Shown: positions 22,415 to 61,769, counted from the whole stretch's first letter. The stretch is 61,769 nt of DNA, filler included, from 5 parts of 5 records of this genome joined end to end with filler, not necessarily neighbours in it, one strand, 5' to 3'. Numbers and translations: made by a program. The notes: generated by a model from the sequence alone, not told the origin.

Positions 22415-22417
22415 AAT

Positions 22418-24391: not shown

Positions 24392-24402
24392 GAGTTGATC
24401 AT

Positions 24403-27928: not shown

Positions 27929-27932
27929 ATGT

Positions 27933-29255: not shown

Positions 29256-29263
29256 AGTGCCTC

Positions 29264-32539: not shown

Positions 32540-33152
32540 CTGGTTTCACCCCTTCTACATAGCCTTCATACTTATCGACAACTTCTTTGATTGAATCATA
32601 ATTTGTAACATATAAAATCGTTGGGTATATTTTAATTCTTGCATCATCATGCAACCCTTTATCAATATAATCAATTAAATTATAATTTCTTAGAAAAGTA
32701 AGTGCTGGTTTAAGTCTATCTTTTGTAATACGTTTATGATCGAGGTAACCAATTCTTGTTAACTCTGAATGAATCTCATGCAAAAAGATTTCAACATCTT
32801 CATCTAATGTGACATAATCTTTTTTATGTTGATATAAAATTCTAAGTACAAGAATTAATATACTCTCAGTTTTTCTAAGTCTCATATGATTAAATAACTG
32901 CTCATTTTCGATGTAGACGACTTCAGTTTCTCTATGTATATTTAGTCTAAAATCTGCAAGCGCTAAATAGCTTTCAAAAACTTCTTTAAACGCTAAGATA
33001 AAACGATAATCATTGGTATCGCCAGGTTTTCTTTTTGTGATAAAGTTGACTTGGAATAGTTTATTAATAATACGTGATACATTATTCTTTTCACTTTCTT
33101 TTAAGTTTAAATAAGTATCACTTAATTGCATCATCGCTTGTTTTTTATTCAT
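32517..33152 (-). CDS. jetB: Wadjet JetB / MksE KITE subunit (DUF4194-like)
   Basis: ESILILVLRILY, LTFLRNYNLI, IKIYPTI; 211 aa; overlaps both jetA and jetC. Confidence 0.8.
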   Translation of the reverse strand: MNKKQAMMQLSDTYLNLKESEKNNVSRIINKLFQVNFITKRKPGDTNDYRFILAFKEVFESYLALADFRLNIHRETEVVYIENEQLFNHMRLRKTESILILVLRILYQHKKDYVTLDEDVEIFLHEIHSELTRIGYLDHKRITKDRLKPALTFLRNYNLIDYIDKGLHDDARIKIYPTILYVTNYDSIKEVVDKYEGYVEGVKPDEETDED

Positions 33153-34530
33153 AAGATTTCCCCTTTATAATGAAGTTTTGGAAAGTTACATAGTTGTTTT
33201 TAACTGTTTGCCCAGTTAAATGAACATCATAGTGCATACCTACCGATTTAGAATATAAGAAAATCAATATTAATTTTACATAATCTTCTTGTGTATCTAT
33301 ATTGATATCTTTTGCTTCAATCTCTTTTTGTTTACCAAGAAGAGATTTCACATACATATCAATTTCTTTTTTACCAAAGATATTATTCTTAAGCAATGCT
33401 TTGATTTTTTGTGATCGCATTTCCTCACTAATAAATCCTTGATCAAATGTGATTTCTTCTGCTTGTGTATCTATTCTTTGACGTCTTTTTGAGTATAGTG
33501 ATTGCGTATCTAGATTTCTAGATTGCGTGATGTGAAATAACTTCGTATAATCAAATGAATCATCCTTTAAGACAATTTGGAATAATCGATTGAATATCCC
33601 TTCAATATCATCTGATTGATTTGTTAAGAATAAAATCTTAGATGCTGCAGCTGTGACATATTGCTCATTTTTCTTGTCAATCGATAAGATTAAATATTCT
33701 AACGCATTAAAACTATCTGATATATATCTCAGTTTATCTTCAACATAATTAAATGCTTCGTTATAATCTTCTAAACGCTTTTTATACATCGTGATTTTTG
33801 CAAGTTCATCCATCATATCTTCGTTATGAATAATATTAGAAACTCTTTCTAATATCCCACGCTTGTAGCGTGATAGACTATCTGTTGTTTTTAAATTATA
33901 ATATGCTGAATCAAAGAAGTTTTGTTTATACTCAATTAACAATTTTTCTAGCAAATCATGAAGATCATCTTTTGATCTTTTTGTTGTAATATCATAATAA
34001 AACCTGTATATATTTGCTTTTAATGCTTTTAACTTTCTAATAATGTCGCTTGTTTTTAAAGTTGCTTGTTCTAATACACCAAGACCTTCTTCTATAGAAA
34101 AAGAATCCAATAGTGAAAATACTGTATATATTTCACCTGTATATTCGTTTTGTGTATTATTTTGAATACGTATTAGTGTATCAATTAATTGAATAGCATA
34201 GTCAAAAAGGTTAAGTGATGTCTTATAATCACCTAACTCTTCTTCGCCTAACCATCCAGTTGATTTTAATACTGAAATGACATGAACTGCTTTTTGTCTT
34301 GCTGTATGGGCAAGTTCGCCTTCTTCAACATCATCAAATAATTCTTCTGCACGATCATCAAAATAATCTATAAGTTTTTGAACAATATATTCTCTATCCC
34401 CTTGGAAAGCATCCTCAATACTATCTACTGCATGAAAAATAACTAATATGCAGTCAATATATATTTCTTTATTTGGGGAGGCAAGGACACTGAAAAAATT
34501 AGACGGTAATCTATCAAACAAATGTGCCAT
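33145..34530 (-). CDS. jetA: Wadjet JetA / MksF kleisin (DUF5716-like)
   Basis: LFDRLPSNFFSVLASPNKEIY N-terminus, L..TGWL, YYNLKT; first gene of the overlapping triplet; SD GGAGG. Confidence 0.8.
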   Translation of the reverse strand: MAHLFDRLPSNFFSVLASPNKEIYIDCILVIFHAVDSIEDAFQGDREYIVQKLIDYFDDRAEELFDDVEEGELAHTARQKAVHVISVLKSTGWLGEEELGDYKTSLNLFDYAIQLIDTLIRIQNNTQNEYTGEIYTVFSLLDSFSIEEGLGVLEQATLKTSDIIRKLKALKANIYRFYYDITTKRSKDDLHDLLEKLLIEYKQNFFDSAYYNLKTTDSLSRYKRGILERVSNIIHNEDMMDELAKITMYKKRLEDYNEAFNYVEDKLRYISDSFNALEYLILSIDKKNEQYVTAAASKILFLTNQSDDIEGIFNRLFQIVLKDDSFDYTKLFHITQSRNLDTQSLYSKRRQRIDTQAEEITFDQGFISEEMRSQKIKALLKNNIFGKKEIDMYVKSLLGKQKEIEAKDINIDTQEDYVKLILIFLYSKSVGMHYDVHLTGQTVKNNYVTFQNFIIKGKSYE

Positions 34531-34577
34531 TTTTTCCTCCTTATTTTATAAATAAAATAACTTTATATATCATTACT

Positions 34578-34606
34578 ATTGTATCATGTTTGCAATATAT
34601 TTACTA
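34578..34606 (-). promoter_or_regulatory. Putative sigma-A promoter of the jet operon
   Basis: Extended -10 TGATACAAT (34586-34578) with weak -35 TAGTAA at 17-nt spacing. Confidence 0.5.
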
Positions 34607-34646
34607 TTTATGACGATCTTTTTCTATTTAAAATACATCTAAATAT

Positions 34647-34680
34647 AAAAAAACAAACGATAAATATATATTTATCGTTT
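34647..34680 (-). terminator. Terminator separating the DsbA-family gene from jetA
   Basis: AAACGATAAATA-TA-TATTTATCGTTT palindrome followed by G and a T7 run on the minus strand. Confidence 0.65.
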
Positions 34681-35324
34681 TAATGAATACGTTTTCTGCT
34701 ACAATTTTCACCAATGCAATGTTCATTTTGCTTTTTAGATGTGTGCTGACGCAGTGCATCTAGAATGATATCACTTGTCTGTAGTCCTTCTAATTTAATG
34801 CCCCGATTGATTCTTAAAAACGGTAATGATTCTACACCTTTTAGCAAGCCATTTTCTTTATTTGAAATTACAGCATCGCTATATAAATTAGAACAAATCA
34901 CTTGATTAACTTTGTCTTCTGATAATCCAACAGCAAGACTCAGTGTTCTAAGTTCATGAACAAAAGATAGATCAATTCTATCCTCATACATAGCTTTAAA
35001 TACTGCTTTGTTAAAAGCGTATGATTTCTTTTCTTTTTTTGCTAAGTGTGCCATTTTATGGACATTATGGATGGGAAATAATCTGATTTCTAAATTTGTG
35101 TCTCTTAAAAAATCAACGACTTCATCTTTTGGTAGATGTTTGTATTTTGAAATGAAATCTACAAATGCTAAGCCTTGGTCAAATTCATTTTCATCAACCA
35201 TTTCAAAGCTTCTATATATAATATCATGTTGACTAATTTGCTTTTGATTAATCATATGTTCTAATGTTTTATGTTGTAAATAACATTTAGGACATAAATA
35301 ATCAAGATAAAATTCTATTTGCAT
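34680..35324 (-). CDS. DsbA/FrnE-family thioredoxin-fold protein
   Basis: IEFYLDYLCPKCY, YRSFE, GVESLPF, C-terminal CIGENC. Confidence 0.8.
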   Translation of the reverse strand: MQIEFYLDYLCPKCYLQHKTLEHMINQKQISQHDIIYRSFEMVDENEFDQGLAFVDFISKYKHLPKDEVVDFLRDTNLEIRLFPIHNVHKMAHLAKKEKKSYAFNKAVFKAMYEDRIDLSFVHELRTLSLAVGLSEDKVNQVICSNLYSDAVISNKENGLLKGVESLPFLRINRGIKLEGLQTSDIILDALRQHTSKKQNEHCIGENCSRKRIH

Positions 35325-35394
35325 AAAAACACACCCTTTATTATTCATTGATATTCTATCAATAAAAGGGTGTGTAATTCAATTCATTTACATT

Positions 35395-35446
35395 TTAATT
35401 TTCAGTATCAATCATATTTTTAATCTTCTCGCTTGAAAATCCTTTT
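35395..35446 (-). CDS. 3' end of a truncated gene, possibly RecX
   Basis: KGFSSEKIKNMIDTEN-stop resembles the RecX C-terminal RKGF..E.I helix; only 16 residues visible. Confidence 0.25.
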
Positions 35447-35546
35447 NNNNNNNNNNNNNNNNNNNNNNNNNNNNNNNNNNNNNNNNNNNNTTAATTAATT
35501 AANNNNNNNNNNNNNNNNNNNNNNNNNNNNNNNNNNNNNNNNNNNN
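35447..35546. other. Artificial contig-joining spacer
   Basis: N44-TTAATTAATTAA-N44. Confidence 0.98.
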
Positions 35547-37071
35547 AAAAAAAGGGTTACGACTTGCCTGTATGGCGATTCCATCCGAAGATACCGCCAT
35601 CGAGCTTCTGGATAATTACGTCTATGAAAAAGGAAGCCGAAATCAAGGCCGGATTTTAGCCGGAAACAGTGAGAATAAAAATGAAACCGTTGCAGTTTCT
35701 CCAGCAATTCGAATCGAGAGAGAGGAACCAACCGACGGCTCATCTACCAACACGGATCCTCCCCCATATCGACTTTTTTTAGATCGAGCAGATGCATCGG
35801 TTCCACTGACAGAATGGGATACCTCCAAAAGCCCCAAAGGCGTGGCCATTGATATCGGTACAACCACCATGGTGCTCAGTCTGGTGGATCTTGTCACCGG
35901 TAAAGTATTGGCTTCGGAATCGAGCCTCAATCCCCAGGTGATACACGGTCACGACGTTTTGAGTCGTATCCAGCATGCTTCCGAGGAAAAGGGACTTACC
36001 GAACTGGCGTCCCTGGTTCAAAACAAACTTAACGAACTGATCGAAGCAACCTGCGCTCGCTCAAATGTCAACAAAAACGAGATTTTAGATATCACCGTAG
36101 GCGCCAATACCACCATGCTGGAGCTGGCTGCCGTCATCGATCCCACGCCTTTGGGTCATCTTCCATTTAAAGTGGACATCAAAGGGGGGACGAACTATCC
36201 GGCCACCCGATTCGGCCTTCAGGTTCACCCCCAAGCTCAAGTTTATGTCCCACCGGTCATGCACGCTTTTGTAGGATCGGATATCAGTGCCGGTCTTCTT
36301 CTCTGCCCGGAATTTTTTGATGACGACAAATCAATTCTCTATTTGGACATGGGCACCAATGGCGAAATCGGCCTAAATGTAAAAGGCAACCGCCTCACCA
36401 CCTCCACCGCTGCAGGTCCTGCGTTTGAAGGCATGGGGCTCTCCACTGGAATGCGGGCTACGGATGGAGCTGTTGAGAAGGTAGAAACGAAGGATAATCG
36501 ATTGACTTTCCAGATCATTGGTGGCGGAAAGGCCAGGGGCATCTGCGGCAGCGGTATTGTCGACTTCATTGCCGCTCTGCTTTCGGAAGGCTTCCTCAAT
36601 CCCTCGGGCAAGCTGACTTCCAGGGGAGATGACGCCTGTCCGGTGGTGGACATCGATGGGCAACCGGCGTTCCGATATGGGGAAGATGTGCATTTGACCC
36701 AGAAGGATATCCGGCAAATTCAGCTGGCAAAGGGCGCCGTCCGTACCGGAATCGATCTCATCCTGGAGAAGGCCGGCATCACTTGTGACGAATTGGATAA
36801 AATATACATCGCCGGAGGATTCGGATATCACCTGAACCCGGTCAACATGGAAAAAATCGGTCTGCTTCCGGATCAGGCTGGGGCAAAAGTGATCTTTTGC
36901 GGAAATGCCTCCATTGACGGCAGTATGCGACTACTTCAAAACGGATCCCAGAGAGCCTTCCTTGAGGGAGCACTCAATGACATGGAACATGTCCAGCTGG
37001 CAGACTCTCCAAAATTTATGGATTGTTTTGTAACGAGTTTGAATTTCCCACTCACAACATTGGAAAATTGA
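35547..37071 (+). CDS. ASKHA-domain reductive activator of corrinoid proteins (RACo/RamA-like, DUF4445), 5' truncated
   Basis: Frame extends upstream as KGLRLAC (end of a 2Fe-2S domain); AIDIGTTT, GHDVLSRI, FVGSDI, DMGTNGEI, AAGPAFEG, GICGSG, QLAKGA, AGGFG. Confidence 0.9.
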
Positions 37072-37073
37072 TT

Positions 37074-37781
37074 ATGCAGACAGAAATCGCCCCGGTTATC
37101 ATCGCCTGCGGCTCATTGACCCACGAATTTGAATCTCTGATACGGCCGGATCATCCGGTTCGAATCACCTATTTGGACACGGATCTTCACCGAACGCCGG
37201 TTCGGATTCCGGAAATTCTTCAAAAAGAGATCGATCAGATTGATGGAAAAATCTCCAACGATGCAGACGATCTCAATGGAAACAAGCCTCCCATTATCAT
37301 TGGATACGGATTATGCTCCAATGCCGTGGTGGGTATTACAGCTCTAAAACGTCCCCTTGTCATCCCCCGAGTTCATGATTGCCTGGATCTTTTTTTGGGT
37401 TTCATGGGTAAGGGGAGGCGTCGATCCGACAGCAACACCCGCCACTATTATCTGACACCGGGCACCCTTCTCAACCGGAAGGATCCGTACAGCATCATGA
37501 CCCATGAATACACCCCTAAAATGGGAGAAAAGACAGCGCAGTGGGGGATGAAAGAGGAGCTGAAGCATTACACCCACTTTGATCTTATCACCACGGTAAG
37601 AGATGACATGGAAGAAATCAGAAAGGCTGCACAAATCAATGCCGATTTTTTTGACATGGAATTGAACGAAATTGCCAGCGATCTTAGCTGTCTGGAAAAA
37701 ATATTGTACGGCCCCCATGACGATCACAGGTTTATTCGGGTTGAGCCGGGTAAAACCGTTGAACAGGGGCTGTTCATCTGA
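37074..37781 (+). CDS. DUF1638 domain protein
   Basis: IIACG, LH..P, GYGLCSN, PRVHDCL, YYLTPG; typical partner of RACo genes. Confidence 0.85.
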   Translation: MQTEIAPVIIACGSLTHEFESLIRPDHPVRITYLDTDLHRTPVRIPEILQKEIDQIDGKISNDADDLNGNKPPIIIGYGLCSNAVVGITALKRPLVIPRVHDCLDLFLGFMGKGRRRSDSNTRHYYLTPGTLLNRKDPYSIMTHEYTPKMGEKTAQWGMKEELKHYTHFDLITTVRDDMEEIRKAAQINADFFDMELNEIASDLSCLEKILYGPHDDHRFIRVEPGKTVEQGLFI

Positions 37782-37826
37782 AAAATTTACTCTCAACGTC
37801 TATCAACGTCAACGGAAGCACCTTAA

Positions 37827-37864
37827 GCGGGATTTGACCGTCTCACTGAATCCCGCACTTTTTT
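37827..37864 (+). terminator. Rho-independent terminator
   Basis: GCGGGATT...AATCCCGC followed by ACTTTTTT. Confidence 0.6.
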
Positions 37865-38052
37865 TACTACCGGTTTCGCGACACGCGCCCCCTCTTTTTA
37901 CCAATCATTTTATCCCTGAATATTCTTTGTCAACTCACTTTTTAGTGGTATATCCACACAAGTGTTGATATAATACAAATATTTTTGCACATTCGGAGAA
38001 AAGTAATTTGATATCGACAGTTGCCCAACTACCTAATGGTGGAGATAAAATC

Positions 38053-39713
38053 GTGTCCAAATCATCCTTTGATTTGTTTAAGTCCTTTGCCGGAGAGCTG
38101 GATCCTCAAATTCTTCAAAAAAATTCCTCCACTCATTACTGAAACTTCAAAATGTCCGACGTGGTTCCATTTGGATTAAAAAAGATAAGCATTATCACTG
38201 CATTGAAGCGGCTGGGACGGAAAAAGATGCCATTCTCGGAATCGATATTTCCAGCGATCAAACCAGTATCGTGGGATGGGTCATTGAAAATGGGCAACGG
38301 ACCATTGCCGAACCCCAAAGCGATGACCGACATTTTAAAGAACTGGAAGATAATCTTGCAATTAAAAGCAGCTTAATTCTCTGTTTCCCCTTACTTCTAC
38401 AAGATAAGACCGTCTATGGCGCCGTCCAGATCATTGACACCACACCACCGGAAAAGAGCCGTGTCAATCTGGATGATGAGTATCTTAACTATATTCAAAA
38501 TCTGGTGGATATCGGTTCAGTGGCACTGGGAAATGCCATCCAGTTCCATCGTCAGGTCAAGGAAACGGAGTCACTGAAAGAGACGTTGTACCAACTTCAA
38601 AAGAAGAACGATCTCATCGGTCACAGCAAAGCATTCCAACAATGTCTTACCCTGGCCCACAACTATGCTCGGTCAGACCTTCATGTGCTGATCACCGGGG
38701 AGAGCGGTACGGGTAAAGAGCTGATCGCCAATGAAATTCATCGGACGGGCTCTCGAAGTGATCAGCCGTTTCTGGTTCAAAACTGCAGTGCCATCCCGGA
38801 GACGTTATTGGAAAGTGAACTGTTCGGCTACAAGAAGGGAGCCTTCTCAGGCGCACAAAAAGATAAAAAGGGACTTTTTGAAGCCGCCAACGGTGGGACG
38901 GTCTTTTTGGATGAAATCGGAGATATGCCTTTCAACATCCAGGCTGCGATTTTACGCGTCCTTCAAAATAACGAGATTAAACCGGTCGGCTCAAACAAAG
39001 TGGTTCATGTGGATGTCAGAATCATTGCCGCAACCCATAGAGACATCAAGCGGATGATCACGGCAAATCGATTTCGTCGGGATCTTTATTATCGACTCTC
39101 AGTACTCCCATTACGCCTTCCGCCACTGAGGGAGCGTCGGGAAGATATCCCTCATCTGATCAGGCATTTTCTAAAGCAGGAAAGCCTGAGCACGGGATTA
39201 ACGGAAAAACGGCTCAAAGCGGATGCCATGCACAAGCTCATCACATGGACGTGGCCGGGAAATATTCGGGAGCTTGAAAATCTCATAAAATACTTGACGG
39301 TTGCGGTGATCGGTGACGAAATCGACGCGGATGATATCCCATCTCATTTTTTCGAACTTTCATCCGGCGACGCTATTTCTTCTGTTGGAGATCCCAGAGC
39401 GTTGTCTCGGCAGACGTATTCCCTTAGCAATCATGAAAATCCGCAAATGACGCCCCATGGGGCACTCCACAGCGCCGACCAAGCGGGTTATCCGGATGGA
39501 ATCAATGCAAGTGCGCAACCACCCGGTCAAAGGGATATTGATTTCGGAAATCTATCGTGGCAGGAAGCTGAATCGTGCTACATCCATTTCATTCTCAACA
39601 AAAATAATTGGAATGTCACATGGGCCGCAAAACAGGCGGGCCTCAATCGCTCCACATTTGCATCTCGAATGAGGCGTTTGGGGATCAAAAGAGCTGAACG
39701 AAGAGTTACATAA
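38053..39713 (+). CDS. GAF-domain sigma54-dependent transcriptional activator; frameshift in an A7 run near 38120
   Basis: GTG start after GGAG, GAF (SIVGWVIENG, LCFPL), GESGTGKE, ESELFGYKKGAFSGA, WPGNIRELEN, HTH. Confidence 0.88.
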
Positions 39714-40184
39714 AATAAAATCCTAATTGTTTATTGTAAGCTTCGTCCAAAAATTCACAACCAATGGATTGGGTTTTTACAGACCGAACCACCGCTCTTT
39801 TATGTATTTCATCCGCATTTTTATTATCCAGAACAAACTCCAATGTCACAATGTCACCGACCTCTATCTGGTTCAAATACTGTCGATGCACAAACACAAA
39901 CTCAACTCCTGCCCCACCCAGTGAAATATCTTTGATAATCACATCACTGAGTAGCTTTCTTTTTTCTATCAAGCAAGATCCAAGTAAAAATACATTTTTC
40001 CTGATAAAATGCCTATACTCGAGTTGGAGCTCATACCCCTCACCACATTTGCATTTTACGTTTAACTTTTTTTATTTTGTTTCACATAGACAGAAGCATC
40101 CAACTTCTTTTCAAATCCGCAATGGGGGCATAGGTAAACGGCAATTCCATCGTCATTGACATAACTTTTCAGGATATTATCCAT
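39706..40184 (-). CDS. Zn-ribbon + PilZ protein, copy 1; frameshift near 40070
   Basis: CPHCG...CKCG then RHFIR (RxxxR) and DISLGG (DxSxxG); ends KQLGFYFM. Confidence 0.8.
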
Positions 40185-40254
40185 ATTGCATTCCTTTCAC
40201 CACGATGAGCCGGATTTAATTTTTCACCCATTATGGTCAATCCCCATTGAAGTT

Positions 40255-40300
40255 CATGAACAACTCCAGCCCAACAACATGAACAACTCCAGCCCAACAA
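40255..40300. repeat. Perfect 23-bp tandem duplication
   Basis: CATGAACAACTCCAGCCCAACAA twice, no spacer. Confidence 0.9.
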
Positions 40301-40342
40301 ATTGATAAACAGGTCGGTATCTGTAAAATGTCAACCATCGAT

Positions 40343-40854
40343 TTAACTCATTATATAAAAGCCCAACTGTTTCGTGTAATTTTCATCATCGAATTCTGCC
40401 CCAACAAACAATTTTCTCACAGACCGAATGATGCAATCTCTCGCAATAAGAGTCCCTTTTGCATCATCCAAGACAAACTCAACTTTCAGCCCATCCCCCT
40501 GATCGAAATTTTGTACGGTCTTTCTATCTCCAAACATGAACTCAATTCCGATCCCCTGCTGCGACAAATCCTTTACGAGGATATCATGCTTCTGTTTGGT
40601 TTTTCTAACGGTACACGTCCCAATTATATTGACCTGCTTTCGAATATACCGTCGAAACTCGATCTGTATTTCAGAAGGTTTCCCGCATTTGCATTTGATC
40701 TTGACATTTTTTTCTTCCCTTTAAATGAAGAAGCATCAAATCGTTTTTCAAACCCGCAATAAGGACAGATAAAAGTGGCTTGATTATTTTCATCCACATA
40801 TACTTTTAACATGGTTGTATTAAAATCTGTAACCCTCTTTTCTTTCATCCACAC
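40343..40854 (-). CDS. Zn-ribbon + PilZ protein, copy 2; frameshift near 40710
   Basis: CPYCG...CKCG then RRYIR and DLSQQG; ends KQLGFYIMS. Confidence 0.8.
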
Positions 40855-41019
40855 TCATTTTTCAACAACAGCACAATCCCCAAAAATCGTTCACTTGTCA
40901 TACCACCCCTGTGCTGTTCTGTCGAGACTCCCTCATCAGACCATCAGAAATTAATTCCAACAAAATTATAGGCATCTTTCATATCACTTCAAAAGAAGTT
41001 TACACTTTTCTGAAAACTC

Positions 41020-41100
41020 TTGAACCATGATTAAAAGGATTTAAAGATGAACATGATAAAAATCAAGATAAATCAGTTAATCATGACCATCATGGTTCAA
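41020..41100. repeat. Intergenic palindromic (REP-like) element
   Basis: 12-bp terminal IR TTGAACCATGAT/ATCATGGTTCAA with internal GAT and ATC units at about 9-nt spacing. Confidence 0.55.
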
Positions 41101-41433
41101 AACAGTGTAAATTGATAAATAAAAGATGCCCCAAATTAATGCAGCATTTCAATTCCACAATATCATTGAACATTTTCTTTGAGTATTTCCTTATATACGG
41201 CAGACAATCAAAAGATACATTAGATAAAAATTTTATCTTTTCAATGCATATAAATATCAAACCAAAAAATCAGAACCATGTTATTATTACGTATGCTAGC
41301 AAACATGATGTAAAAACACTATCTTTTTCACCAAACAGTCAAAAACATAAATGACATCACTGTGACTATGGGGCATTTAGTCCAAAATATTTTATATGAA
41401 AGTCTGCGGAAACCGCAGAAAACTTTCATCTTT

Positions 41434-41533
41434 NNNNNNNNNNNNNNNNNNNNNNNNNNNNNNNNNNNNNNNNNNNNTTAATTAATTAANNNNNNNNNNN
41501 NNNNNNNNNNNNNNNNNNNNNNNNNNNNNNNNN
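41434..41533. other. Artificial contig-joining spacer
   Basis: N44-TTAATTAATTAA-N44. Confidence 0.98.
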
Positions 41534-49229: not shown

Positions 49230-49329
49230 NNNNNNNNNNNNNNNNNNNNNNNNNNNNNNNNNNNNNNNNNNNNTTAATTAATTAANNNNNNNNNNNNNNN
49301 NNNNNNNNNNNNNNNNNNNNNNNNNNNNN
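49230..49329. other. Artificial contig-joining spacer
   Basis: N44-TTAATTAATTAA-N44. Confidence 0.98.
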
Positions 49330-52300
49330 AAAGTTAAAGTTACCGAGTAGTTTAAGTGGCCCTTTTTGCAGGAACTTTACTTTCTTAAATGGTTCAACAA
49401 GTTTTGGCCGGTTAACGTAATTGTACGATAATACAAAATTGTGTGTTTTCTCTATTTCATGTTCGGTTGTTTCATCGTGAGTAGAAGTTTCGTTATAAGA
49501 GTAGGTAAGCGAAATATTGTCAGGATCCCACAAATGAGTTTTTTCTTTTGGTTTTTGAGGTGTGACCTTAACATTGGTGAAATTAATACTTTTGCGTTCA
49601 ACCACTTCCTGTGCAATACTCATTAACGAGTCTTTATCTTCTTGTGTTTCTAAGGCATCCAGTGCATCATCCAGTTCAATATCCGGATCGAGAGGATTGT
49701 ATTCAGGTGTTGTAACACTTTTAGAGTAGCCGTAATACATTGGTATTTTCACTCCGGCTTTTTCAGGGAAGAAACGGCCCCAGTCGATAGATGCAGTAAC
49801 ATCAATTGAAGAATAGTCTTCCATCGACCGTTCGGTTACACTTTCATCAATACTCCCAAAACCAGCGGTGCTTCTTTGTGTGGCAACAGTAACTGTTCCG
49901 AGGTCGGCCAGGCGGGTAGTCATTCGGGCATTTGCGGCCCATCCTCCCTCGTTGTCAAGTCCGGATAAACGTAACTCGTTTGCCCACACTTCAACCGATT
50001 TAGAGCCTGTATTAACTTGTCCCTGCGGATTTCGGATACCCATCATAAACACTTCTACATCGCCAAGGTTAGGGCTTCCTTTTATTTTTATGGTATTTTT
50101 TCCATCGTTGGTATCTCCGTCGGCTGCTTCATATACTTCCGCAGTTGAAGCAGTTCCATCGCTAATGGCTGAGTTACGTTCAAGTTTTAAATCGGTGAAT
50201 ATTTCGAACGAAATATCTATATTATTTGCTTCAGGCCAAACAATATAACGGTCGTCTTCATCGTCGTTGTCGTATTCCACGCCACTGTAAGCAGGAGTTA
50301 ATTGTAGAGGAATTTCGTATTCGTAATAGTTGTTGTTGTAGTCGGAGCCCATTCGGATGAAGAAGTACATTTCTTCATCTTCTAAATCATACCCTTCAAT
50401 TTCTTCAGCATGAACATACATCTTTAGTTCTTCGTAATTTCTAAAATCCATGTATAACGATTTGTAAGCTGCAACAGCATCGCCATTGCCCAAATCGGTT
50501 ACTTCCATAGTTATCGATTGTTCGTCGAGTTGTGTTAAAGAAGTGCTCGACGCATCAATGTCGCGGTCTACTCCCGGAGGAAGTACATAGTTAACCGGTT
50601 CGCGGCTTCCATTTTCTTCAATACTAACTGCCGATATTTCGAATTCGGTATCGGGCGATTCAACCACATTTGTTTCGTCAATAATATCGCCGGAGTATTC
50701 GCGCCAATCTGCCCGCACAAGATCGAGTGTGGCAAAACGCATAATCATAGAATCTGAAAAGCCGGTCATAAACATCCTCATAAAACGAATGGAGCTGTAA
50801 TCGTCAATGTCACCAAATGTTTCATCGGGCGAGTAAACCGGAATTTGAAACTGGTACCAGTCTACTTCGCCAATTTCGCCGTTTTCGAGCTCTACCGAGG
50901 AGCTTTGTTTATCGGTGATGTAATTCTCGCCAACAACCATATCTTCTCGTCTTACACTTACTTTATACTGGTAATAAGCTTCGTACTCGCTCAGTGTATT
51001 GTCGTCATTAATATCTTCAACATCAGGAATGGTGGTAGCTGATGTGGTGTAACTTTCATCCGACATTTCAGAAGTAGGAGAGTTACCATCGGGGCCGTTG
51101 TATTTTTTATACCGTGTAAGAATATCTACCTCATCGTCGTCGTAGTCTGAGCCCCGGTAATAATGGTAATTGTCGGTCGCGGGGTCGGCTTCTGCCGCCA
51201 GATAAACAGCGTCTTCTACCTTCATTTTAAGTTTTTCGAGGTATTCTTCAAAAAACGAGGCTTCATCGTCATCGTTTAATCCGTCGAAACCAATATCCTG
51301 GTATTGTCTCGATGAGGTAGTATTGTCGAAGGAAGTAACAAGCGACTGTTCTGTTGATACACGTCCCCAAATAGTGGTGTCAACATCTGTTACTTCTTCG
51401 GTAGTAGGAAGTCCGTTTTCGAAAGCTTTACGCGAGTCTTTTAAAATATCTTCAGAAACGCTGCCAAGGTTAAAATACAAGTCACCACCCTCGTGATCTT
51501 CAAGAGTGTCGTTTATGAACGGATCCATTACCCAAAATTCGATGTACTGGATATTGGCAGTTTCAAAATCGCTTGTTGAAATTTCGCGCATTATACCTCC
51601 CCAGCGACTTTCCGGATCGCGAAGGGTACCATCAGAATTTACACCGGCCGAATAGCTGGAGCTGCCGGTATCGAAGTTATATGGTCCACGTTCATCGGGA
51701 TAATACGCCAGGTTGAGTACGGTAATGTTTGTTGTCTCTCCGGTTTCGTATTCCCTGTCGGGAAAAATTTCTTGTTCGTAAATTTCCCGAACCAGGTGGT
51801 TCGACTGCATATCCGGATCAGTCTTAATATGGTCGGGGGTATACGAATTGTTTCTTAAAAATATTGGATCGATGTTATAGAATGCCAGTTTTGCACGGTT
51901 AATACCGTAGTCGGTACTACTTGTAAGGTTGCCTTCGGGGAACATATCGTACTGGTATTGCGGAGTACTGGCCAGCGCCCACGACGTAAGCGTCCTCATG
52001 TCGATATCTGTTGTTGTTGATTCAAAGTCATCAATATAAACGCAACCATCGGCAGAGCTTGAAGTTCCGGGAACCAGTTTGGCATACTCTCCTTCGAAAC
52101 TAAAGGCCGATGTAGCAGAACTACTGTAAAATGGTAATTTATTCAGCAACCTTGTAATCCCCATACTTTCGGTGTCGTAGCTGGCATCGAGACCAAACAT
52201 TAGGTTCGAAATCGGATCGTCGCCATAGTCTACCTTCTCGGTTAATGCCCTTTCGTTCATATACAACATGGTACCTCCAATGTTAAAATTATCGGAAAAG

Positions 52301-54486
52301 GCATAATTGGCATGAGAACCCATCAGGGTTTTTGTTTGCATAGAATAGAGGTCTTCGCTTTCGCTCGATACTTCGATTGGAGTACCGGCCTCCAGCAATG
52401 CCGAGTTTATAATTGTAACTGTTCCCAAAGTGTAATCAACTATATAGTCAACATTTTCGGTTAAAATAGAGCCACTGGCAGATACTGTAACCGAACCTTG
52501 AGTAAGGTTATACGAGCCCAGCGAAATACTTGAGCTGGAGGTACCCGTGTAGCTACCCGTTAATTTAAATTTATTGTGCTCGGCATCTTGTTCTGCGTAA
52601 ACTGCAGTCGAGTCGTATAACGATTGGAAGGTATATGTCTCAATGTCGGTGGGACTTTGTATGGAATCGGCCAGGTGGCTTCCAAAAGGTTCCAGTACCG
52701 GAAAGATAATTCTTCCGTTATCAGAATTGATTGTTATGTCTTCAACATAATCGAATACCCCATCCGATGTTTCATCAAGCTGACTGTTTAGATTATCCAG
52801 GTTCATTACCTGAAGTAAAATATGGCCTTCGAGCGAGCTGCCCGGCAAATAGTTTATGTCGGTACCCGATGAATCGCTTTGATAAACAACGTTTAATTCA
52901 AAATCTTCGTCGGAAAGAGAATAAGCATTTAGGTTGTAAATGTTTTTCATCATCAAGTCCCAGGTGGGTTTACTTGGCGAAAGGTTGGTGCCTTTCAGCA
53001 TCTTTACGAACAATGTTTTTGGTGCGTCAATTCCGTCGGTAGAGAATTCTCCAACCTGAAATGTTTCTCCGTTTACGGTGTAATTGTAGGCTACGGCAAG
53101 AACCTCGTCGGAAGTAAGTGCAGAGCTTAATGAAATATACCCCAGTGTTTCGCTGTAAGAATATTCCGAGTCATCCAATAATCTGGCTTGTTCTACCTTC
53201 TCGTAATCGGTACCTCCAACAAATTGAGATCCAAATTGAGATAATACAGTGGTAATATTTGAAACCGTCCGAACATCGGAATATGTTCCGCTAAGCTCAC
53301 TATAAATGCCGTTTGCACTGTTGTTGGGATACGTGTTCTCGGGATAGCCCTGGCCTCCTGATTCCTGAAATTGTGCAACGTCGTTGTAAATGTGAGGATC
53401 GTGTTCGCCAAGATCATGTACTGCCAGAATATTTCTTGCATCGCTATAATCGCTTGATTTGTTGGTTACCCATATTTCAATTTTATTAATGGTAACCGGC
53501 GAACCGGGAATAGCGGTATTTTTTAGCCATTCATCGTAGTGATCGCGAAAATAATGCGAAAGAAAAAAGTGTCGCTTGGCATCGTAATTGGCTGCCGATA
53601 TCTCGAAAGTAGCAACTTGTGCTCCTCCTTCTGTCGACACGGTAGTAGTTTCTCCTTTACTTTGCGAGAACAGGGTTGTAACATTTAATTTACCAAATTG
53701 CATATCTGCCTTAACACCAAAAAGGTTCGATGCGCCGGTAATTAACGAGCCGTTTAAAGGCAGAGAAACATTACCGGCTTCAATTTTTTTCAGAATCTCA
53801 TCTTCGTCGCCGGTATATTCTATGTTCATTTTATTTTCATAATCGAATGTTGCCTCGGTGTTATAGTTCACACTCATATTCATTTTTGTACCAATTTGCC
53901 CGGTAACATTCATCTGTATTTTTTCATCGAAATCGAAAGTAGGAACCGATCGTAAATTTTCAGAAATAGAAGGATTTTCGGTGGTATTTACCTCGTAACC
54001 AAAACTTACCTCTACGTAACCTTGTGGTTGTATATTAATAGTATTCCCTCCAAAAATTTGGCTGAATGCTTCGCTTTCTACAGTCAGTTTTGGTATCATG
54101 CCTCCCCGGCTATCCATATCTTCGAGCTGCGAACGCGATTTCCAATAAGCGCGCACCGATTTATCGAAATCGTAATCGATATATTCACCGAGCGACATAC
54201 TTTGCGGCAAACGATAATTCATGGTTCCCACTTTTTCGTAGAAAACATATTCGCCAAGCACAGGGTCGTATTCAATTTCGTATTTAATATTATTTGGTTT
54301 GTTCAGAAATAATTTTGAAGAATCCTGATTGCTATATCCAAAGGCGGGTTGGTCTTCAAAAGGGTAGGGAAGAGTTCCGCTGGTATCGACTTCGGGTAAA
54401 TTCTGGGCTCTTCCGGTAAAAGGAATAAGGGTAACAATAACAGTAAATATGAAGAATATCTTTAGAAAATCTTGGTCAAACGTCAT
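49330..54486 (-). CDS. sprA: T9SS outer-membrane translocon SprA/Sov, copy B (acid-shifted), 3' truncated
   Basis: Signal peptide ending GRA-Q; IFGGNTINIQPQG, YTGDEDEI..IEAGNVSLPL, WDLMMKNIY, RWGGIMR, VWANELRL, GGWAA. Confidence 0.95.
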
Positions 54487-54841
54487 CTCTTTTAGCTCTT
54501 TTAAAATGCTGAAAAATCGTAATTGTTTTCATCTTCACGGGTTCTTTCCCGGATGAAAACCCTCTTCGTTTTATTACGTTTTCAGGTGGTGCTAAAAGTT
54601 GTTTCTGAGTAGCTATGAAACAATTTGTGCAATACAAAGTCAAGAATGACTAAAAAACAGAATAGCTAAAGCAGATAACGATTCACCTTTGATTGTATTG
54701 TCTACAGTGTGTAAACTTTTGCAGGTATTTTGTAGCTTTTAATTTGAGTTTGTGCAGTTTTTGTGCGTATGTGGCTAATAACCTTTTAGATATAAATTTA
54801 GGCGATTAACGTTTTTAGAGAATAAAATTATTCGAAATATG

Positions 54842-54876
54842 AAAAAAATCCGGTCCTGATTAATATAGGGACCGGA
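54842..54876 (-). terminator. Rho-independent terminator between the sprA copies
   Basis: TCCGGTCC...GGACCGGA stem followed by T7 on the minus strand. Confidence 0.75.
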
Positions 54877-54918
54877 ATCTTATATTTTTAATAGAACAGA
54901 GCTTACTGGTTTAAGCGC

Positions 54919-57900
54919 TTAATTTGTTAGCGTAAACTTGAAACTTACTCCAAAATTTACATTCGTTGTACGGTACGATAACGATGTAAAAGGATCGTTA
55001 ATAATCCGGTCGTAAAATACACGCATTTCAAATTTATCGCTTAAACGATAATCGGCGTAAGTTTTTACAGTAAAGTTTCCCTGGCCTGCTGTAATTTGGT
55101 TGTCGTCTTCGTCAAGCTGGCGCAATAAGGTTTTACTTTTTATATACGAAACATCAGTACGAATATTCAAGTCGTTAGAGTAAGCTTTTTGCGAATTTTT
55201 TGTTTTTATAATTAAGTCCATGTGCGTGAAACGGTAGCCCACACCCAGAACATATTCGTTACTTAAAATTTCGGTTAGCTGGTTGTTTGCAAACGACATG
55301 TTTAGATTACGCGTACGATTTATTTCGGCCCGGGTTGTAAGGTCGCTTTTCCATGTAATGTCCATGTTAATAAGCGGATTTAAGGCCTCTATAATACTTA
55401 CAGAGTTGAAATCGTAAGCCGGCACAAAGTTGTCGGCCAAATCTCGTACGTAACTGTAACCATCGGTTGATGCCAGGTAATTAAGGTTAGTGGCATACGA
55501 ACCTACAGTGTAGTTTGATGTGTAAGTATGCTGAAAGTTTAGCGAACGCATTACATTGTTCAGTCCCGGAATTTTTGAAACCATACCTTCGTAGCGGATG
55601 GTCCAGTTTGGCCTGATATTTTTAAGTGATGGGAACATATCGAGCGAAACTTTCTCAGGATCTTTATTCTGATAAGCTGCCATAATGCAGGAACAAGAAC
55701 TTCAACAGAGTTTGGTCCATATCCATCGGGGAAACTTGGGGTTTGGGAGTGCGACTGACTTGCATTATAACCGCTGGTGTTTCCCCGGTCCTGGGCTAAA
55801 CGATTGGCAATAACCAAACGATAATCTTTCATTTTTTCGAATGTTGCCGAGCTGGTAACTTCCTCTTTTCCCATTTTAAAGAAGGCTGTTCCCCAGGTTA
55901 GAGTAGACATACTAAAGTTACCCGTTTCAGAAAAACTGTTGGCAACAAATTGTCCGCTGTTATAATCGTAATCGTAGTATTCCGTAACATTTTTCGAGAA
56001 CGAACGATTGGCATTAATATCAATTCTTAAATCGGGCAGAGGTTCCCATGTTATCCTAAAATTCACACGTTCGTTGTCGTTAAACATGTATGGTTGATTA
56101 AGCGTTGAGTCGGTAGTAATCCAGCCATTTTCTGCTGCTTTTACCGCAAAATCGCGATCTTGCCATCCAAACAGGAATGGTAATCCCGGAGCAAAATTTG
56201 ACTGCGCACTAGGTACTCCCCATTCCGGATCGCCTGAAAAATTGCCGGCTCCAAACAATGTTGGTTCGGGCAAATAACCCGGTAAAGCAGTACCGCCATT
56301 TTTACTGTACGTAACCGCAATCGAACGGAATCCAATAATCATACGCGTTGTAACATCGAGCATGTCTTTTAGTAAAGGTTGGTCGCCGCGTTTCCCGGTT
56401 ACCGAAAGCATTGCTTGTGCGGCACTGGCCGTTGGCGTAAATTCAATGGTATTTCTGTCGAGTATTGAAACCTTTCCGGCAACTTTCTTACCATCATTAT
56501 CCGTAACTAAAACACTAACTTTTTTGGTGTCAAGTTTATGGTTAATCTTTTGTGCTTTCTGAGCCGACAAACGTACTTTTTTTGTAAACGACTCTTCTTT
56601 CTTTGGTTGTATTGGTTGGGTATCTCGCTGACTACTGCTCGAACTTCTTCCTCTTGACGTGCTCCTGTTCATACTGCCCCTGCGACTTCCCGTTCGTTTG
56701 AATTTTTTATTAAGATCGCGGAAATAGGGTACTTTGTTAAACAGTGTTTGCGTATTCGCATTTCCTGTTACCGTAAGGTTCCGTGTATTGGTAATGGTAT
56801 TACCCAGGTTTATTGATTCATCGTTGGTTAGCGAGCCCGCATCCCAACTGTATGTTCCCGAATAACGTATTGAAGAGCTGATAAAATTTAGTGCTTTTAT
56901 ACTACGAATAGGTACCTTATATGTGGCATTAAAACTGTGGTTATAAATTGTTGGTCGTCCCATATCCCACAGGTTTGTAAGAATTGAGTCGCGTTTCCAT
57001 TCATAATCGTCATCATCTTTATTTATTCTTCCTTCCGGTTCATCTATTCTGGAAGTTGACTGCGATGAAAAATCAAATTTAAGCGAACGCGTAACATCGT
57101 AACGAATATCTAAATATCGGTTCCACAAGAAATCTTTCTCGAAAGATGCCGGCAAAATAAAATCGGGATTGGTAATATTTCGTGTTTGTGTTTCGTGATA
57201 CTTCCTGTATAAATTTGTACGAAACGATATTTGTGTAGGAAGCGGATAAAAATTGAAATCGCCAATTAATTTTAATGGCCCTTTCTGTAGTAATTTTACC
57301 TTTTTAAAAGGTTGTATAAGTTTTGGGCGATTGCTATAATTGTACGAGAACATAAGTTTGTGGGTTTTGTCCACATCGGTTTCTGTTGTTACATCGCGTT
57401 TCGATACTTCGTTGTATGAATAAGTAACCGCAAAATTTTCCGGATCCCATAAGTGTGTTTTTTCGCGTTGACGTTTGGGCTCTACTTTTACGTTGGTGAA
57501 GTTGATACTTTTTCGCTCGGTAACCTCCTGTGCAATAAATTTAAGCGAGTCTTTCTCATTCTGTGTGTCAAGTCTCGATAAAGACTGGTCCATTTCAATA
57601 TCCGGTTCCAAAGGATTGTATTTCGGATTGGTTGCGCTTCTCGAATAACCGTAATACATTGGGATACGCACGCCTGCTTTTTCAGGGAAGAAGCGACCCC
57701 AGTCTATAGATGAAGATATATCAATTTCAGACAGGTCGTCTACTTGCTGACTGTTAATATTCTGGTCAATACTTCCGAATCCTGAAGAGCGTTTCCTTCC
57801 GGCAACTGTTACACTACCTAAATCAGCCAGTCGTGCCGACACACGTGCATTGGCAGCCCAACCTCCTTCATCTTCGAAATCAGACAGACGCAATTCGTTG

Positions 57901-60900
57901 GCCCAAACTTCAGCCGATTTTGGCCCGGTATTTACTTGCCCTTTTCTGTTACGGATACCCATCATAAATACTTCTACATTGCCTAGATTCGGGCTACCTT
58001 TTACTTTTATTCTGTTTTTGCCGTTATTGGCATCCGGGTCGTTACCCTCGTAAATACTTTGAGTGGAGATTGTTGAGCCCGGGGCACTCAAGGCATCGTT
58101 ACGATCCAATTTCAGGTCAGTGAATAAATCAAGCGAGAAGTCAATCTGGTTTTCTTCGGGCCAAACTATGTAACGGTCGGCTTCGCTTTCATTATTATAA
58201 TTAACACCATTTTTATGAGGAGTTAATTTCAACGGAATTTCGTATTCGTAGTAGTTGTAATTATAATCCGATCCCATACGAATGAAGAAGTAAAGTTCGT
58301 CATCTTCTAAAGGTGAACCTTCAATTTCTTCGGCATGGACATCCATTTTTATTGTTTTGTATTTTCTGAAATCCATGTACAGCGATTTGTAGGCCGCTTT
58401 GGCATCGCCTTGTTCCAGGTCGGTCACTTTCAGAACCATCGATTGCTCGTTCAACTGTTTTAACTGAGCATTTGCCGGATCGATAACCCTTGATACTCCC
58501 GGAGGAAGAACGTAGTTTACCGGGTCGCGGCTGCCGTTTTCTTCAATACTTACAGCCGAAATTTCGAGCTCGGCATTAGCCGACGGAATTGCATCAGCAT
58601 CAGAAATGTCATCGGTATAACGACGCCAGTCGGCACGAACCAAATCAAGAGTTGCAAAACGCATGATGGTTGAATCGTTAAAGCCGTGCATAAACATCCT
58701 CATAAAGCGAATAGATGAGAAGTCGTATATATTTCCCATTACCGCGTCTGGACTATTCACAGGAATTTTGAATTGGTACCAGTTTACTTCACCGATTGAA
58801 CCGTTTTTTAATTCTACTTTACTGTTTTTAATGTCAGTAATGTAGTTTTCGCCCAATACCATGTCTTCTTTTCGGATACTAACCTTATACTGGAAATAAC
58901 GTTCGTATTCGTTAAGTGTGTTATCACTGTTTATATCTTCGATATTGGGCAGAGTAGTTGCCGATGTGGTGTAGCTTTCTTCCGACATTTCGCTTGTTGG
59001 CGAGTTACCGTCAGGGCCGTTGTAATTTTTATACCGGCTTAAAATACTTCTTTCCTGAGTATCGTAATCAGAACCACGGTAATAATGGAAGTTATCACTT
59101 GCCGGATCTTTTCGTGCTTCGTCGTAAACATCGGAGTTTACTTTTAAGCGCAAGCTTTCCAAATAATTGGCAAAATAGTCCTGCTCGTCGGTGTCGTTCA
59201 AACCATCAAAACCAATGTCCTGGTATTCGCGCGATGTTAAGGTATTGTCGAATGCATTTACCAGTGATTGTAATGTCGAAACACGTCCCCAAACAGTTGA
59301 GTCAACGTTGGCTACTTCTCCGGTAGTTGGCAACCCGTTTTCGAAAGCTTTTCTTGAATCTTTTAACACATCTTCCGAAATATCACCGAGGTTGAAATAT
59401 AAATCACCACCTCTGTGGTCGCCCATTGTATCGTTTATAAACGGGTCCATCATCCAGAATTCAATGTATTCGATATTGGCCGTTTCAAAGTTGCTGGTTG
59501 TTATTTCGCGCATAATACCACCCCAGCGTGATTCCGGTAAACGCAGAGTTCCATCAGGATTTACACCGGCTGCGTAGCTACTTGTTCCCTCGTCGAAGTT
59601 ATAAGGCCCTCTTTCTGTTGGATAATAGGCAAGGTCGAACATTGCAATATTGGTTGCCTGACCTGTATCATATTCTTTTTCAGGAAATAATTCCTGTTCA
59701 AACACCTCACGCACAAGATGATTAGACTGCATGTCGTAGTCTCTTTTAATATGATCTGGTGTTAATGAGTTATTTCTTAAAAACAGAGGGTCGATATTGT
59801 AAAAGGCGAGCTTTGCACGGTTTACACCATAATCAAGCGAGTTGCTTAAGTAGGCTTCAGGAAATAAATCGCTCTGGTATTGTGGTGTACTTGCCAGCAT
59901 CCACGACTGAATGGAACGCATGTCGATTTCTGTTTTTGTCGCTTCAAAATCGTCGATATACACCGCTCCGTCAATGGCGCTTGAACTTCCCGGAATCAAT
60001 TTGGCATATTCTGCTTCAACATCAATTGCCGATACTGCGTTAGTACTGTAAAACGGCAATGCATTCAAAGCTTTGGTAAGAAACATGCTTTCAGTACTGT
60101 AACGGGTGTCGAAACCAAACATTAAGTTCGAAATTGGGTCCTCGCCGTAATCTACTTTTTCAGTAAGCGGCCTCTCATTCATATAAAGTAAGGTTGCCCC
60201 AACATTAAAATTATCGGAGAATGCATAGTTTGCATAAGAGCCCATTAGTGTTTTTCGCTGCATGGAAAACAGGTCTTCACTTTCTGTTGAAACAGAAATT
60301 GGAGTGCCTGCTTCGAGCAAAGCCTGGTTAATAATTTTTACCCGTCCGAGTGTGTAGTCAACAGTGTAGTCAACATTCTCAACCAGTACTTGTCCTCCGG
60401 CAGTTACTTTTACCGAACCTTGTGCAAGATTTAGTGCTCCCAGAGTAATGTCCGAACTCGACGAGCCTTTGTAACTACCAACCAGTTTAAACTTGTTGTG
60501 TTCAGCATCTTCTTCGGCGCTTATCTGGGTTTCATCGTACAGCGTTTGAAAGGTATATTTTTCAATGGCATCTGCATCCTGAAGCGAATCGGCAAGGTGG
60601 CTGCCAAATGGTTCAATAACGGGGAATATAATTTTACCTGCTGTTGAGTTGATGGTAATGTCTTCCACATAATCGAATATTCCGTCTTTTGTTGGATCGA
60701 GTTGTTTATTCAGCATGTCGAGGCGCATTACTTCCAATAAAATGTGTCCGTTTAGTCTGCTGCCCGGGAGATAGTTGATATCTGTTCCGGTTGAATCGTT
60801 TTGGTAAACAATATTAAGCTCGAAATCATCACTGGTAAGCTGATAGGCATTCAGATTATAGATGTTTTTCATCATCAGGTCCCAGGTTGGTTTTCCAGGC

Positions 60901-61769
60901 GATAAGTTGGTGCCTTTCAGTAATTTTACATATAAAGTTTGAGGAGCGTCGATACCATCGGTAGAGAATTCCCCAACCTGAAATGTTTGCCCGTTCGAGG
61001 TGAAATTGTATGCAACTGCAAGTACTTCGTCGGTATTAAGTGCACTGCTCAGCGAAATATAACCAAGTTGTTCGTTAATGCTATATTCCGATGAACTCAG
61101 TTTCCTGGCTTGTTCCACCTTTTCGAAATCGGTTCCACCAACAAAGTTCTGTCCGAACTGTGCCATGGTGCTGGTAATATTTTCAACCGAACGAACGCCG
61201 ACATAAGTCGTACTCATTTCGGAGTATAAACCATTGGCATCGTTGTTTGGGTAAACATTTTTAGGATAAGCAAGTCCGCCTGTAGCTTGAAATTGTGGAA
61301 TATTATTGTAAATATTCGGTTCGTGTTCTGCCAAATCCTGCAAAGCCAAAATATTACGCGACTCTTCAAAATCGCTCGATTTATTGGTTACCCAAACTTC
61401 AATTTTGTTAATGGTAATTGGCGATGTAATAATCGCTGTATTCTTCAGCCATTCGTCGTAATGATTACGGAAATACTGGGACAAAAAGAAATGTCGGTTG
61501 GCATCGTAATCAGCTGCCGATATTTCGAAGGTTGCTACCTGTGCTCCGCCCTCTGTTTCTACAGTTTGTGTTTCGCCTTTACTTTGAGAAAAGATAGTAG
61601 TTAAATTCAGTTTCCCGAATTGCATTTCTGATTTTATACCAAACAGGTTAGATGCTCCGGAAATTAGCGAGCCATTTAAAGGAAGCGAAACATTACCGGC
61701 TTCAATCGATTTTATAATTTCATCTTCATCACCGGTGTATTCAAGGTTCATTTTATTTTCGTAATCGAA
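54919..61769 (-). CDS. sprA: T9SS outer-membrane translocon SprA/Sov, copy A, 5' end outside window; frameshift near 55685
   Basis: Same motifs as copy B; ORFs 55560-61751 and 54919-55683 join as VLVPAF-MAAY when one T is restored; C-terminal strand NFGVSFKFTLTN. Confidence 0.95.

Follow-up and report, generated by a model that had tools for sequence, protein, structure and literature searches.

A tandem pair of sprA genes in a Draconibacterium-like bacterium, the downstream copy from a proposed acid-shifted SprA lineage

Introduction

SprA, also called Sov, is the outer-membrane translocon of the T9SS (type IX secretion system). To our knowledge it has been treated as a single-copy, invariant part of the T9SS core, and mechanistic work on it rests on the Flavobacterium johnsoniae protein and its Porphyromonas gingivalis counterpart. 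Here we analyse a 61,769-base stretch of DNA (the window), the last contig of which carries two sprA genes, copy A and, downstream of it, copy B. Among the papers listed in our search of open-licence papers and preprints, none describes a duplicate or paralogue of the SprA translocon, which is not proof of absence. The closest described parallels are the tandem GldN/GldO of F. johnsoniae and the multiple SprF/PorP proteins, adjacent and partly redundant T9SS paralogues according to a review (PMC9127263); unlike the pair studied here, these are ring or adaptor proteins and not translocons.

Set beside F. johnsoniae SprA (6H3I/6H3J and the 8GL6 series), the two genes agree in how the family profile TIGR04189 covers the part that is present and in their colinearity, and copy B also shares the signal peptide and the SkpA-binding N-terminus. 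They differ in being two tandem copies, in that B has 36 fewer Lys/Arg and 34–36 more Asp/Glu residues than A over the ~1500 shared residues, and in that B is incomplete in the data. The second point of comparison is the ordinary ruvA-sprA locus of the nearest relatives, Draconibacterium, Maribellus and Mariniphaga (loci L001–L036 of our set). Copy A is 77–81% identical to the Draconibacterium/Maribellus orthologues and B is preceded by the same ruvA 3′ remnant at a comparable distance, whereas here a second cassette stands behind the first and its ruvA part has decayed. These relatives bear out the assignment to the family Prolixibacteraceae that had been made in an earlier reading of this DNA (hereafter, the sequence-only reading).

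Two sprA genes lie head to tail on the last contig

The window consists of five contigs joined by four identical spacers (N44-TTAATTAATTAA-N44). The sprA pair, at 49330–61769, takes up exactly the last contig, about 12 kb long, and DNA to the left of 49330 has no physical linkage to it. Two sprA reading frames run head to tail along the minus strand of this contig, with a terminator-like hairpin and a remnant of ruvA between them:

61769 to 55560, minus strand: sprA copy A, first frame, 2069 codons; TIGR04189 2262 bits, profile positions 161–2065
55683 to 54919, minus strand: sprA copy A, last 254 codons after a frameshift; TIGR04189 221 bits, profile positions 2068–2318, E 1.7e-65
55683–55686, minus strand: site of a 1-nucleotide (nt) deletion in copy A, from the sequence and ortholog alignments
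54487–54918, minus strand: spacer between copies A and B, 432 bp
54842–54876, minus strand: terminator-like hairpin behind copy A; 8-bp stem (TCCGGTCC/GGACCGGA), 12-nt loop, T7
54649–54738, minus strand: decayed ruvA relic, corresponding to RuvA residues 133–162 of 193, with in-frame stops on both sides
54486 to 49330, minus strand: sprA copy B, 1719 codons from the ATG; TIGR04189 2088 bits, profile positions 4–1643 of 2319; PF14349

TIGR04189 is the NCBIfam equivalog 'T9SS outer membrane translocon Sov/SprA', with a cutoff of 200 bits and 2319 profile positions. Both copies score above this cutoff, are colinear with the profile and match PF14349; with the 432-bp gap and the hairpin, these matches confirm the description of two colinear sprA paralogues separated by a terminator, with which the sequence-only reading had begun.

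Copy A lacks its first ~213 residues, as the window end cuts off the 5′ end of the gene, and its first visible residue corresponds to residue 214 of B. At 55683–55686 it has one base fewer than its orthologues in 10 of the 10 ortholog alignments printed, one of which shows a second gap further on; the orthologues read CCT GCA TTY YTN GCN GCN TAY CAR at this site, which encodes P-A-F-L-A-A-Y-Q. The resulting frameshift lies about 250 codons before the stop of the gene, and the final ~41 codons of the first frame are out-of-frame read-through. The deletion costs copy A the frame only, the profile continuing across both frames from 161–2065 into 2068–2318. Copy B starts with a signal peptide (hydrophobic leader MTFDQDFLKIFFIFTVIVTLIPFTGRAQ) and stays open for 1719 codons straight into the contig end at 49330, while the other two frames of the same stretch hold 89 and 133 stops. 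Aligned to F. johnsoniae SprA, B residues 57–1719 correspond to residues 36–1722 of 6h3i_A (1185 bits).

A ruvA relic stands in front of copy B

The hairpin behind copy A comprises a G+C-rich stem at 54876–54849 followed by seven T at 54848–54842 (minimum free energy −21.5 kcal/mol, z −4.2 against shuffles). A simple terminator pattern scan had skipped it because loops of ≤8 nt were allowed and the loop of this hairpin is 12 nt.

Beyond the hairpin lies the ruvA relic. All eight RuvA protein queries match 54738–54649 at 43–52% identity, and a weaker piece (RuvA residues ~110–125) in another frame reaches ~54785. To place the locus among its relatives we compared it with 80 related loci, one genome per species, and with 120 related proteins listed. 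In more than 40 of the 80 loci, a 46-nt piece of the A–B spacer has a match upstream of the sprA gene. Its conservation in the alignment is codon-periodic, and it belongs to ruvA, of which it is the 3′ part. The idea that an RNA element is conserved there was considered and rejected, the 46-nt match being ruvA coding sequence; an Rfam scan of the sprA contig gave nothing near threshold. In ordinary loci the ruvA end lies 9–130 nt before sprA; the relic ends 162 nt before the ATG of B, a spacing that we judge to be within the ordinary range. ruvA was found directly upstream of sprA in all eight loci from which an open reading frame was extracted, at ~100–600 nt upstream across loci L001–L064, and ruvA-sprA is a conserved gene pair from Prolixibacteraceae to Odoribacter.

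The decayed relic in front of B indicates that B brought along the end of the gene upstream of it, ruvA's 3′ part and sprA having been duplicated together, or inserted from a relative, as one cassette. A relic in this position would be expected if the cassette landed behind the terminator of the resident sprA.

Substitutions between the copies are directional

Over the shared region 1098 of 1505 aligned residues (73%) are identical between A and B, with three gapped columns in all. The nucleotide sequences have diverged to 59–83% identity per 50-codon bin, with no rise towards the contig end. A repeat-collapse break at the contig end was accordingly rejected, A/B identity staying near 70% to the last codon. 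The proportion of synonymous differences (pS) is 0.75, that is, saturated, in keeping with the many synonymous differences noted in the sequence-only reading, and the non-synonymous divergence (dN) is 0.20. Base composition is nearly the same in the two genes: the G+C content is 0.414 in A and 0.423 in B, and that at third codon positions (GC3) is 0.401 and 0.405.

The amino acid changes run in one direction. From A to B, 44 Lys/Arg are lost and 8 gained (binomial p 4e-7), 67 Asp/Glu are gained and 32 lost (p 6e-4), 89 Ser/Thr are gained and 41 lost (p 3e-5), and 37 Asn are lost and 14 gained. Counting all 407 substitutions, B becomes more negative through 103 of them and more positive through 40 (p 1.4e-7); its net charge is −165 where that of A is −94, and the isoelectric point is 4.15 against 4.54. 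The frequency of Asp, Glu, Thr, Ser, Val and Tyr has gone up in B, and that of Lys, Arg, Asn, Gln, Leu, Ala and Phe has gone down. These counts uphold the directional loss of Lys/Arg that the sequence-only reading had proposed. Its wording, that the second copy was 'stripped' of these residues, holds as far as B has fewer of them and is otherwise too strong, since B keeps 100 Lys/Arg over the shared residues against 136 in A. An accompanying trend of Pro loss did not emerge (9 lost, 6 gained, p 0.61).

The charge change is found in every 100-column bin except the first and peaks around aligned columns 900–1200. Residues 29–100 of B are conserved and without charge shift, and residues 29–130 align with the relatives, again without charge shift. 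A gain of O-glycosylation sequons was also tried as an account of the extra Ser/Thr and rejected: D-[ST]-[AILMVT], which we take to be the Bacteroidota O-glycosylation motif, occurs 6 times in A, 6 times in B and 6.1 ± 0.9 times in 119 ordinary relatives. A Bacteroidota O-glycosylation motif is also mentioned in a published study (PMC10994853).

Copy B is the one that changed

Comparison with the relatives gives the change its polarity. In 112 ordinary full-length SprA proteins the shared ~1500 columns contain 151 ± 7 Lys/Arg and 212 ± 9 Asp/Glu, for a net charge of −61 ± 15. The corresponding values for copy A are 136, 230 and −94, about 2 standard deviations from the family mean, and for copy B 100, 264 and −164, which places B 6–7 standard deviations from the family mean net charge. 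By this outgroup comparison B, and not A, is the outlier. B reaches no more than 72% identity with any member of the species set, and 78% with a metagenome protein, P0001.

We next asked which residues B had given up, using 100 alignment columns in which 90% or more of 114 ordinary sequences have Lys/Arg. Copy A keeps 95 of these columns and copy B 76, along with 76 of 95 conserved Asn/Gln columns. In the other conserved-class columns B keeps 865 of 927 (93%; Fisher p 3.5e-7 against Lys/Arg). A distant ordinary orthologue, L039_1, which is ~52% identical, has no such bias (78 of 100 against 770 of 927, p 0.21). Because B keeps 93% of the other conserved columns and 76% of those for Lys/Arg, its change is a class-specific loss of conserved basic (and amide) residues and not a general decay.

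Copy B belongs to a proposed acid-shifted SprA lineage

Four further proteins resemble B in charge. Over the shared columns the net charge is −169 in P0001, −160 in P0024, −137 in P0023 and −120 in P0045. Together with B these proteins keep 68–81 of the 100 conserved Lys/Arg columns, against 95 in A, and B falls into the class that we call acid-shifted, with a net charge below about −120 and a selective loss of conserved Lys/Arg. Full-length acid-shifted SprA is 2484–2493 residues long (P0001 2493, P0023 2484), and P0045 is only 1969. The C-terminal thirds of the full-length forms are mildly shifted, at −3 to +1 against +8.6 ± 5.2.

In a site-heterogeneous tree B groups with P0001, and P0023 with P0024, each with 100% SH-aLRT support. 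The union of these two pairs has 74–93% support, under a model that the composition violates; the moderately acidic P0007 (the same protein as L002_1, −92) and P0002 fall in the same wider clade, and copy A is sister to the whole acid-shifted set together with P0007/P0002 (99%). With LG+G4, A, B and L002_1 come out in the same relation to one another. Gene conversion or chimeric tracts were considered and rejected: in 100-residue windows A is always nearest to ordinary orthologues, and B is nearest to P0001 in most.

Forms related to B also occur in the ordinary setting. On a 6.46-Mb chromosome L002_1 immediately follows an intact ruvA, and no other sprA occurs within 10 kb of it. P0001 lies on a 310-kb contig for which no second sprA appears among the 120 proteins listed, a weak inference. 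Because P0001 is as acidic as B and no second sprA is listed on its contig, the acid form may be a lineage's only translocon, and so is not necessarily a 'second' one. P0023, on a 35,594-bp contig, is 72–74% identical to both A and B and, if it comes from the same assembly, may be a third sprA in the bin.

Tandem sprA pairs are rare among relatives

Of the 80 related loci, 79 have one sprA and one has a tandem pair; at least 3 kb of sequence was available upstream in 72 loci, downstream in 60 and on both sides in 57. The exception, locus L018 (CAXXTY010000001.1), is on a 2.0-Mb contig of an uncultured Draconibacterium sp., with sprA at 9827–17383 and from 17652 to the locus end (25067). Both of its copies are full-length and lie 268 bp apart.

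The L018 pair is like the A–B pair in running head to tail, with a canonical upstream copy and a downstream copy, L018_2, that is diverged, compositionally odd and poorer in Lys/Arg. L018_2 has 123 Lys/Arg against a mean of 150, the second-lowest count of 72 sequences, and keeps 82 of the 100 conserved Lys/Arg columns. It is unlike B in having no gain of Asp/Glu, which at 215 is ordinary, and unlike the A–B spacer the 268-bp spacer of L018 yielded no ruvA relic. L018_2 is marginally closest to its own neighbour's group (64%), on a very long branch whose placement in the tree is unstable. The L018 tandem is probably an event separate from the A–B pair. A bolder idea is that translocon duplication has occurred at least twice in Draconibacterium-like bacteria (A–B and L018), the downstream copy losing conserved basic residues each time, and that a recurrent SprA class with a re-charged interior or surface would stand beside the canonical pore, use the same SkpA/SprE dock and serve a different condition or different substrates; we regard this as speculative and rather improbable.

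Copy B as a translocon

We think it probable that B is a working translocon, because it has 1719 open codons, its dN lies far below a saturated synonymous divergence (dS), which indicates purifying selection on B, and it keeps 93% of the conserved non-basic columns. In F. johnsoniae a SkpA trimer encloses the N-terminal segment of SprA, which links SprE to the pore and cannot be removed without abolishing transport (PMC10994853). B can probably use the same periplasmic partners, because its own N-terminal segment is conserved and not charge-shifted.

The explanation that we favour begins with a cassette of the ruvA 3′ part and sprA that would have arrived immediately after the terminator of the resident sprA, either by duplication or by insertion from a close relative. 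Copy A is the ordinary SprA of the Draconibacterium/Maribellus type, ~81% identical to its orthologues, and B would be a member of a diverged, acid-shifted lineage with P0001, P0023, P0024 and P0045. In that lineage conserved Lys/Arg and Asn/Gln would have given way to Thr, Ser, Glu and Asp, while the glycines, aromatics, hydrophobics and the SkpA-binding N-terminus were kept, so that B is predicted to fold into the same 36-strand barrel and to dock the same periplasmic partners with much more negative water-exposed surfaces. Its C-terminal part would presumably be complete in the genome, and it would be transcribed alone, from a putative promoter in the ~330 nt that separate its ATG from the hairpin. 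The second, separately regulated translocon of the sequence-only reading thus stands as regards a second sprA with a hairpin in front of it, a signal peptide of its own and a long open frame; the hairpin, together with the ~330 nt downstream of it, would point to separate regulation from a putative promoter. Taken as a whole, and leaving the cause of the charge shift aside, we hold this explanation to be evenly poised between right and wrong.

As to that cause, a spread-out shift to acidic and hydroxyl residues resembles the signatures of high-salt proteins, and proteins of the outer membrane and periplasm are exposed to external ions in salt-out organisms too. Among the causes offered in the sequence-only reading, which ranged from a different cargo class to resistance to proteases, polyphenols, salt or phage, salt or the ionic environment fits the pattern of change best, a choice that we make with modest confidence. 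The shift would then adapt the protein to an outside and a periplasm rich in ions (salt or divalent cations), and would not reflect a change of cargo class. That the ionic environment was in fact the selective cause is a tentative proposal, and we would sooner expect it to fail than to hold.

Several points weigh against this reading, in whole or in part. Its value is limited for now by a fragmented draft in which neither copy is complete and A is frameshifted; with its frame broken as assembled, A may or may not still work, and two working translocons are no more than a possibility. The C-terminal ~770 residues of B lie beyond the data because the contig ends at 49330 (full-length relatives have ~2490 residues), and a stop or decay may lie in that part. 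The exact motif TAnnTTTG, presumably the Bacteroidota-type promoter motif, was not found in the spacer, where one site with 1 mismatch lies 156 nt before the ATG of B. Columns of shared Lys/Arg loss, which could be taken as a sign of common descent within the acid-shifted lineage, also link B to the ordinary long-branch protein L014_1 (31 against 15 expected), and because of this the overlap of sites is weak evidence of common descent. Across the contigs of the window G+C ranges from 0.29 to 0.49; because it differs so strongly between them the bin may be mixed, that is, the contigs may not all come from one genome. Finally, the window's other proteins show no unusual acidity, most having −5 to +3 net charges per 100 residues, and because of this the organism is not a salt-in halophile; the salt reading draws on composition, set against the protein signatures of halophiles.

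Alternative explanations

The alternative that survives best is that B is a xenologue, a ruvA′-sprA cassette from a related species of higher salinity that recombined behind the resident gene, in which case the shift would say little about the function of B here. Monophyly of A and B is rejected (ΔlnL 203, approximately unbiased (AU) test p 0.0002), in a test for which the group was named after the tree had been seen and whose model is violated by the composition of B. B is nearest to P0001 (78%) and not to A (73%), and acid-shifted forms occur on other contigs for which the 120 listed hits include no further sprA, again a weak inference. However, B does not differ from A in G+C or GC3, and the heavily decayed relic and the saturated synonymous sites imply that any transfer happened long ago and that B has been retained ever since; the tree would be equally well explained if an old duplication had been followed by loss of the A type in sister lineages. 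We regard a foreign origin as doubtful, if worth keeping in view.

A replacement in progress would make A a fresh pseudogene and acid-shifted B the sole working translocon, the pair being a snapshot of displacement. The 1-nt deletion, set against all ten ortholog alignments, does cut off the last ~250 residues of A, and the acid type seems able to serve alone: L002, in B's clade, sits at the canonical place behind an intact ruvA without a second copy, and the contig of P0001 has none listed. Yet the 254 codons past the shift are still open and match the profile at E 1.7e-65, so that the lesion is either very recent or a sequencing or assembly error in a short run of T, and we consider replacement unlikely.

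The charge shift could also be a by-product of decay, B being a redundant duplicate under relaxed constraint or a truncated remnant. Its branch is about twice as long as that of A (0.27 against 0.13 in the LG tree), it has lost family-conserved residues, and its C-terminus is beyond the data. Against this, the losses fall on Lys/Arg far more than on the other conserved-class columns, none of the 1719 codons is a stop while the other frames are full of them, dN is 0.20 where dS is saturated, and full-length acid-shifted relatives of 2484–2493 residues exist, all of which make decay a very unlikely account. An assembly artefact, in which the sprA genes of two co-occurring populations were joined in one contig, might be suspected in a fragmented draft that is held together by N spacers, has contigs of 0.29–0.49 G+C and includes a contig that ends inside B while A runs off the window end, but it can be set aside with little hesitation because a chimera would need a k-mer shared between the downstream-of-sprA and upstream-of-sprA regions of two organisms, where no such sharing is expected, and would carry ruvA intact instead of 30 decayed codons of it between stops, because A and B share no exact repeat above the 14-nt seed (best repeat-family identity 77%), and because a relative's 2.0-Mb contig (L018) has a tandem sprA pair too. 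That the tandem pair is real we hold with high confidence.

Other contigs of the window

The other contigs carry genes unrelated to sprA, and a Pfam scan of the 30 other window proteins turned up no PorV, SprE, GldKLMN or similar T9SS components. G+C is ~0.29–0.32 in 19968–35446, 0.43–0.49 in 35547–41433 and ~0.41 in the sprA contig. The remaining features are:

19868–19967, 35447–35546, 41434–41533 and 49230–49329: artificial contig spacers, N44-TTAATTAATTAA-N44
7802–9043, minus strand: bacterial serpin (PF00079, E 1e-113), adjoining a sigma-54 two-component pair
22667–24391, plus strand: 574-residue protein with a Cthe_2159 carbohydrate-binding domain (PF14262, E 1.4e-80)
29264–34530, minus strand: Wadjet-type defence module of JetA (PF18982), a DUF4194 JetB-like protein and an SMC/SbcC-like ATPase of 1091 residues (JetC-like)
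35572–37781, plus strand: RACo-type corrinoid activase (PF14574, PF17651), then a DUF1638 protein, on the high-G+C contig

The gene next to the Wadjet-type module is cut by the contig end. The Cthe_2159 protein is the exception to the ordinary acidity of the window proteins, with 3.0% Lys/Arg and 16.6% Asp/Glu; it lies on the low-G+C contig, which may or may not stem from the genome of the sprA pair.

Implications for SprA and the T9SS

The A–B pair is a real, old tandem, and its downstream copy comes from a proposed acid-shifted SprA lineage. The pair shows how a 7.5-kb outer-membrane gene can be duplicated and then retuned, with the ruvA relic marking the breakpoint. If it is true that one cell holds both copies, nature would have provided a ready-made mutational experiment: two translocons ~70 net charges apart over ~1500 shared residues that keep the fold-determining residues and the periplasmic docking segment. 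Such a pair could reveal the basic pore residues on which substrate passage, PorV/Plug binding or contact with lipopolysaccharide depends. And if the charge shift tracks salinity, it would serve to mark how the envelope of marine sediment Bacteroidota has adapted.

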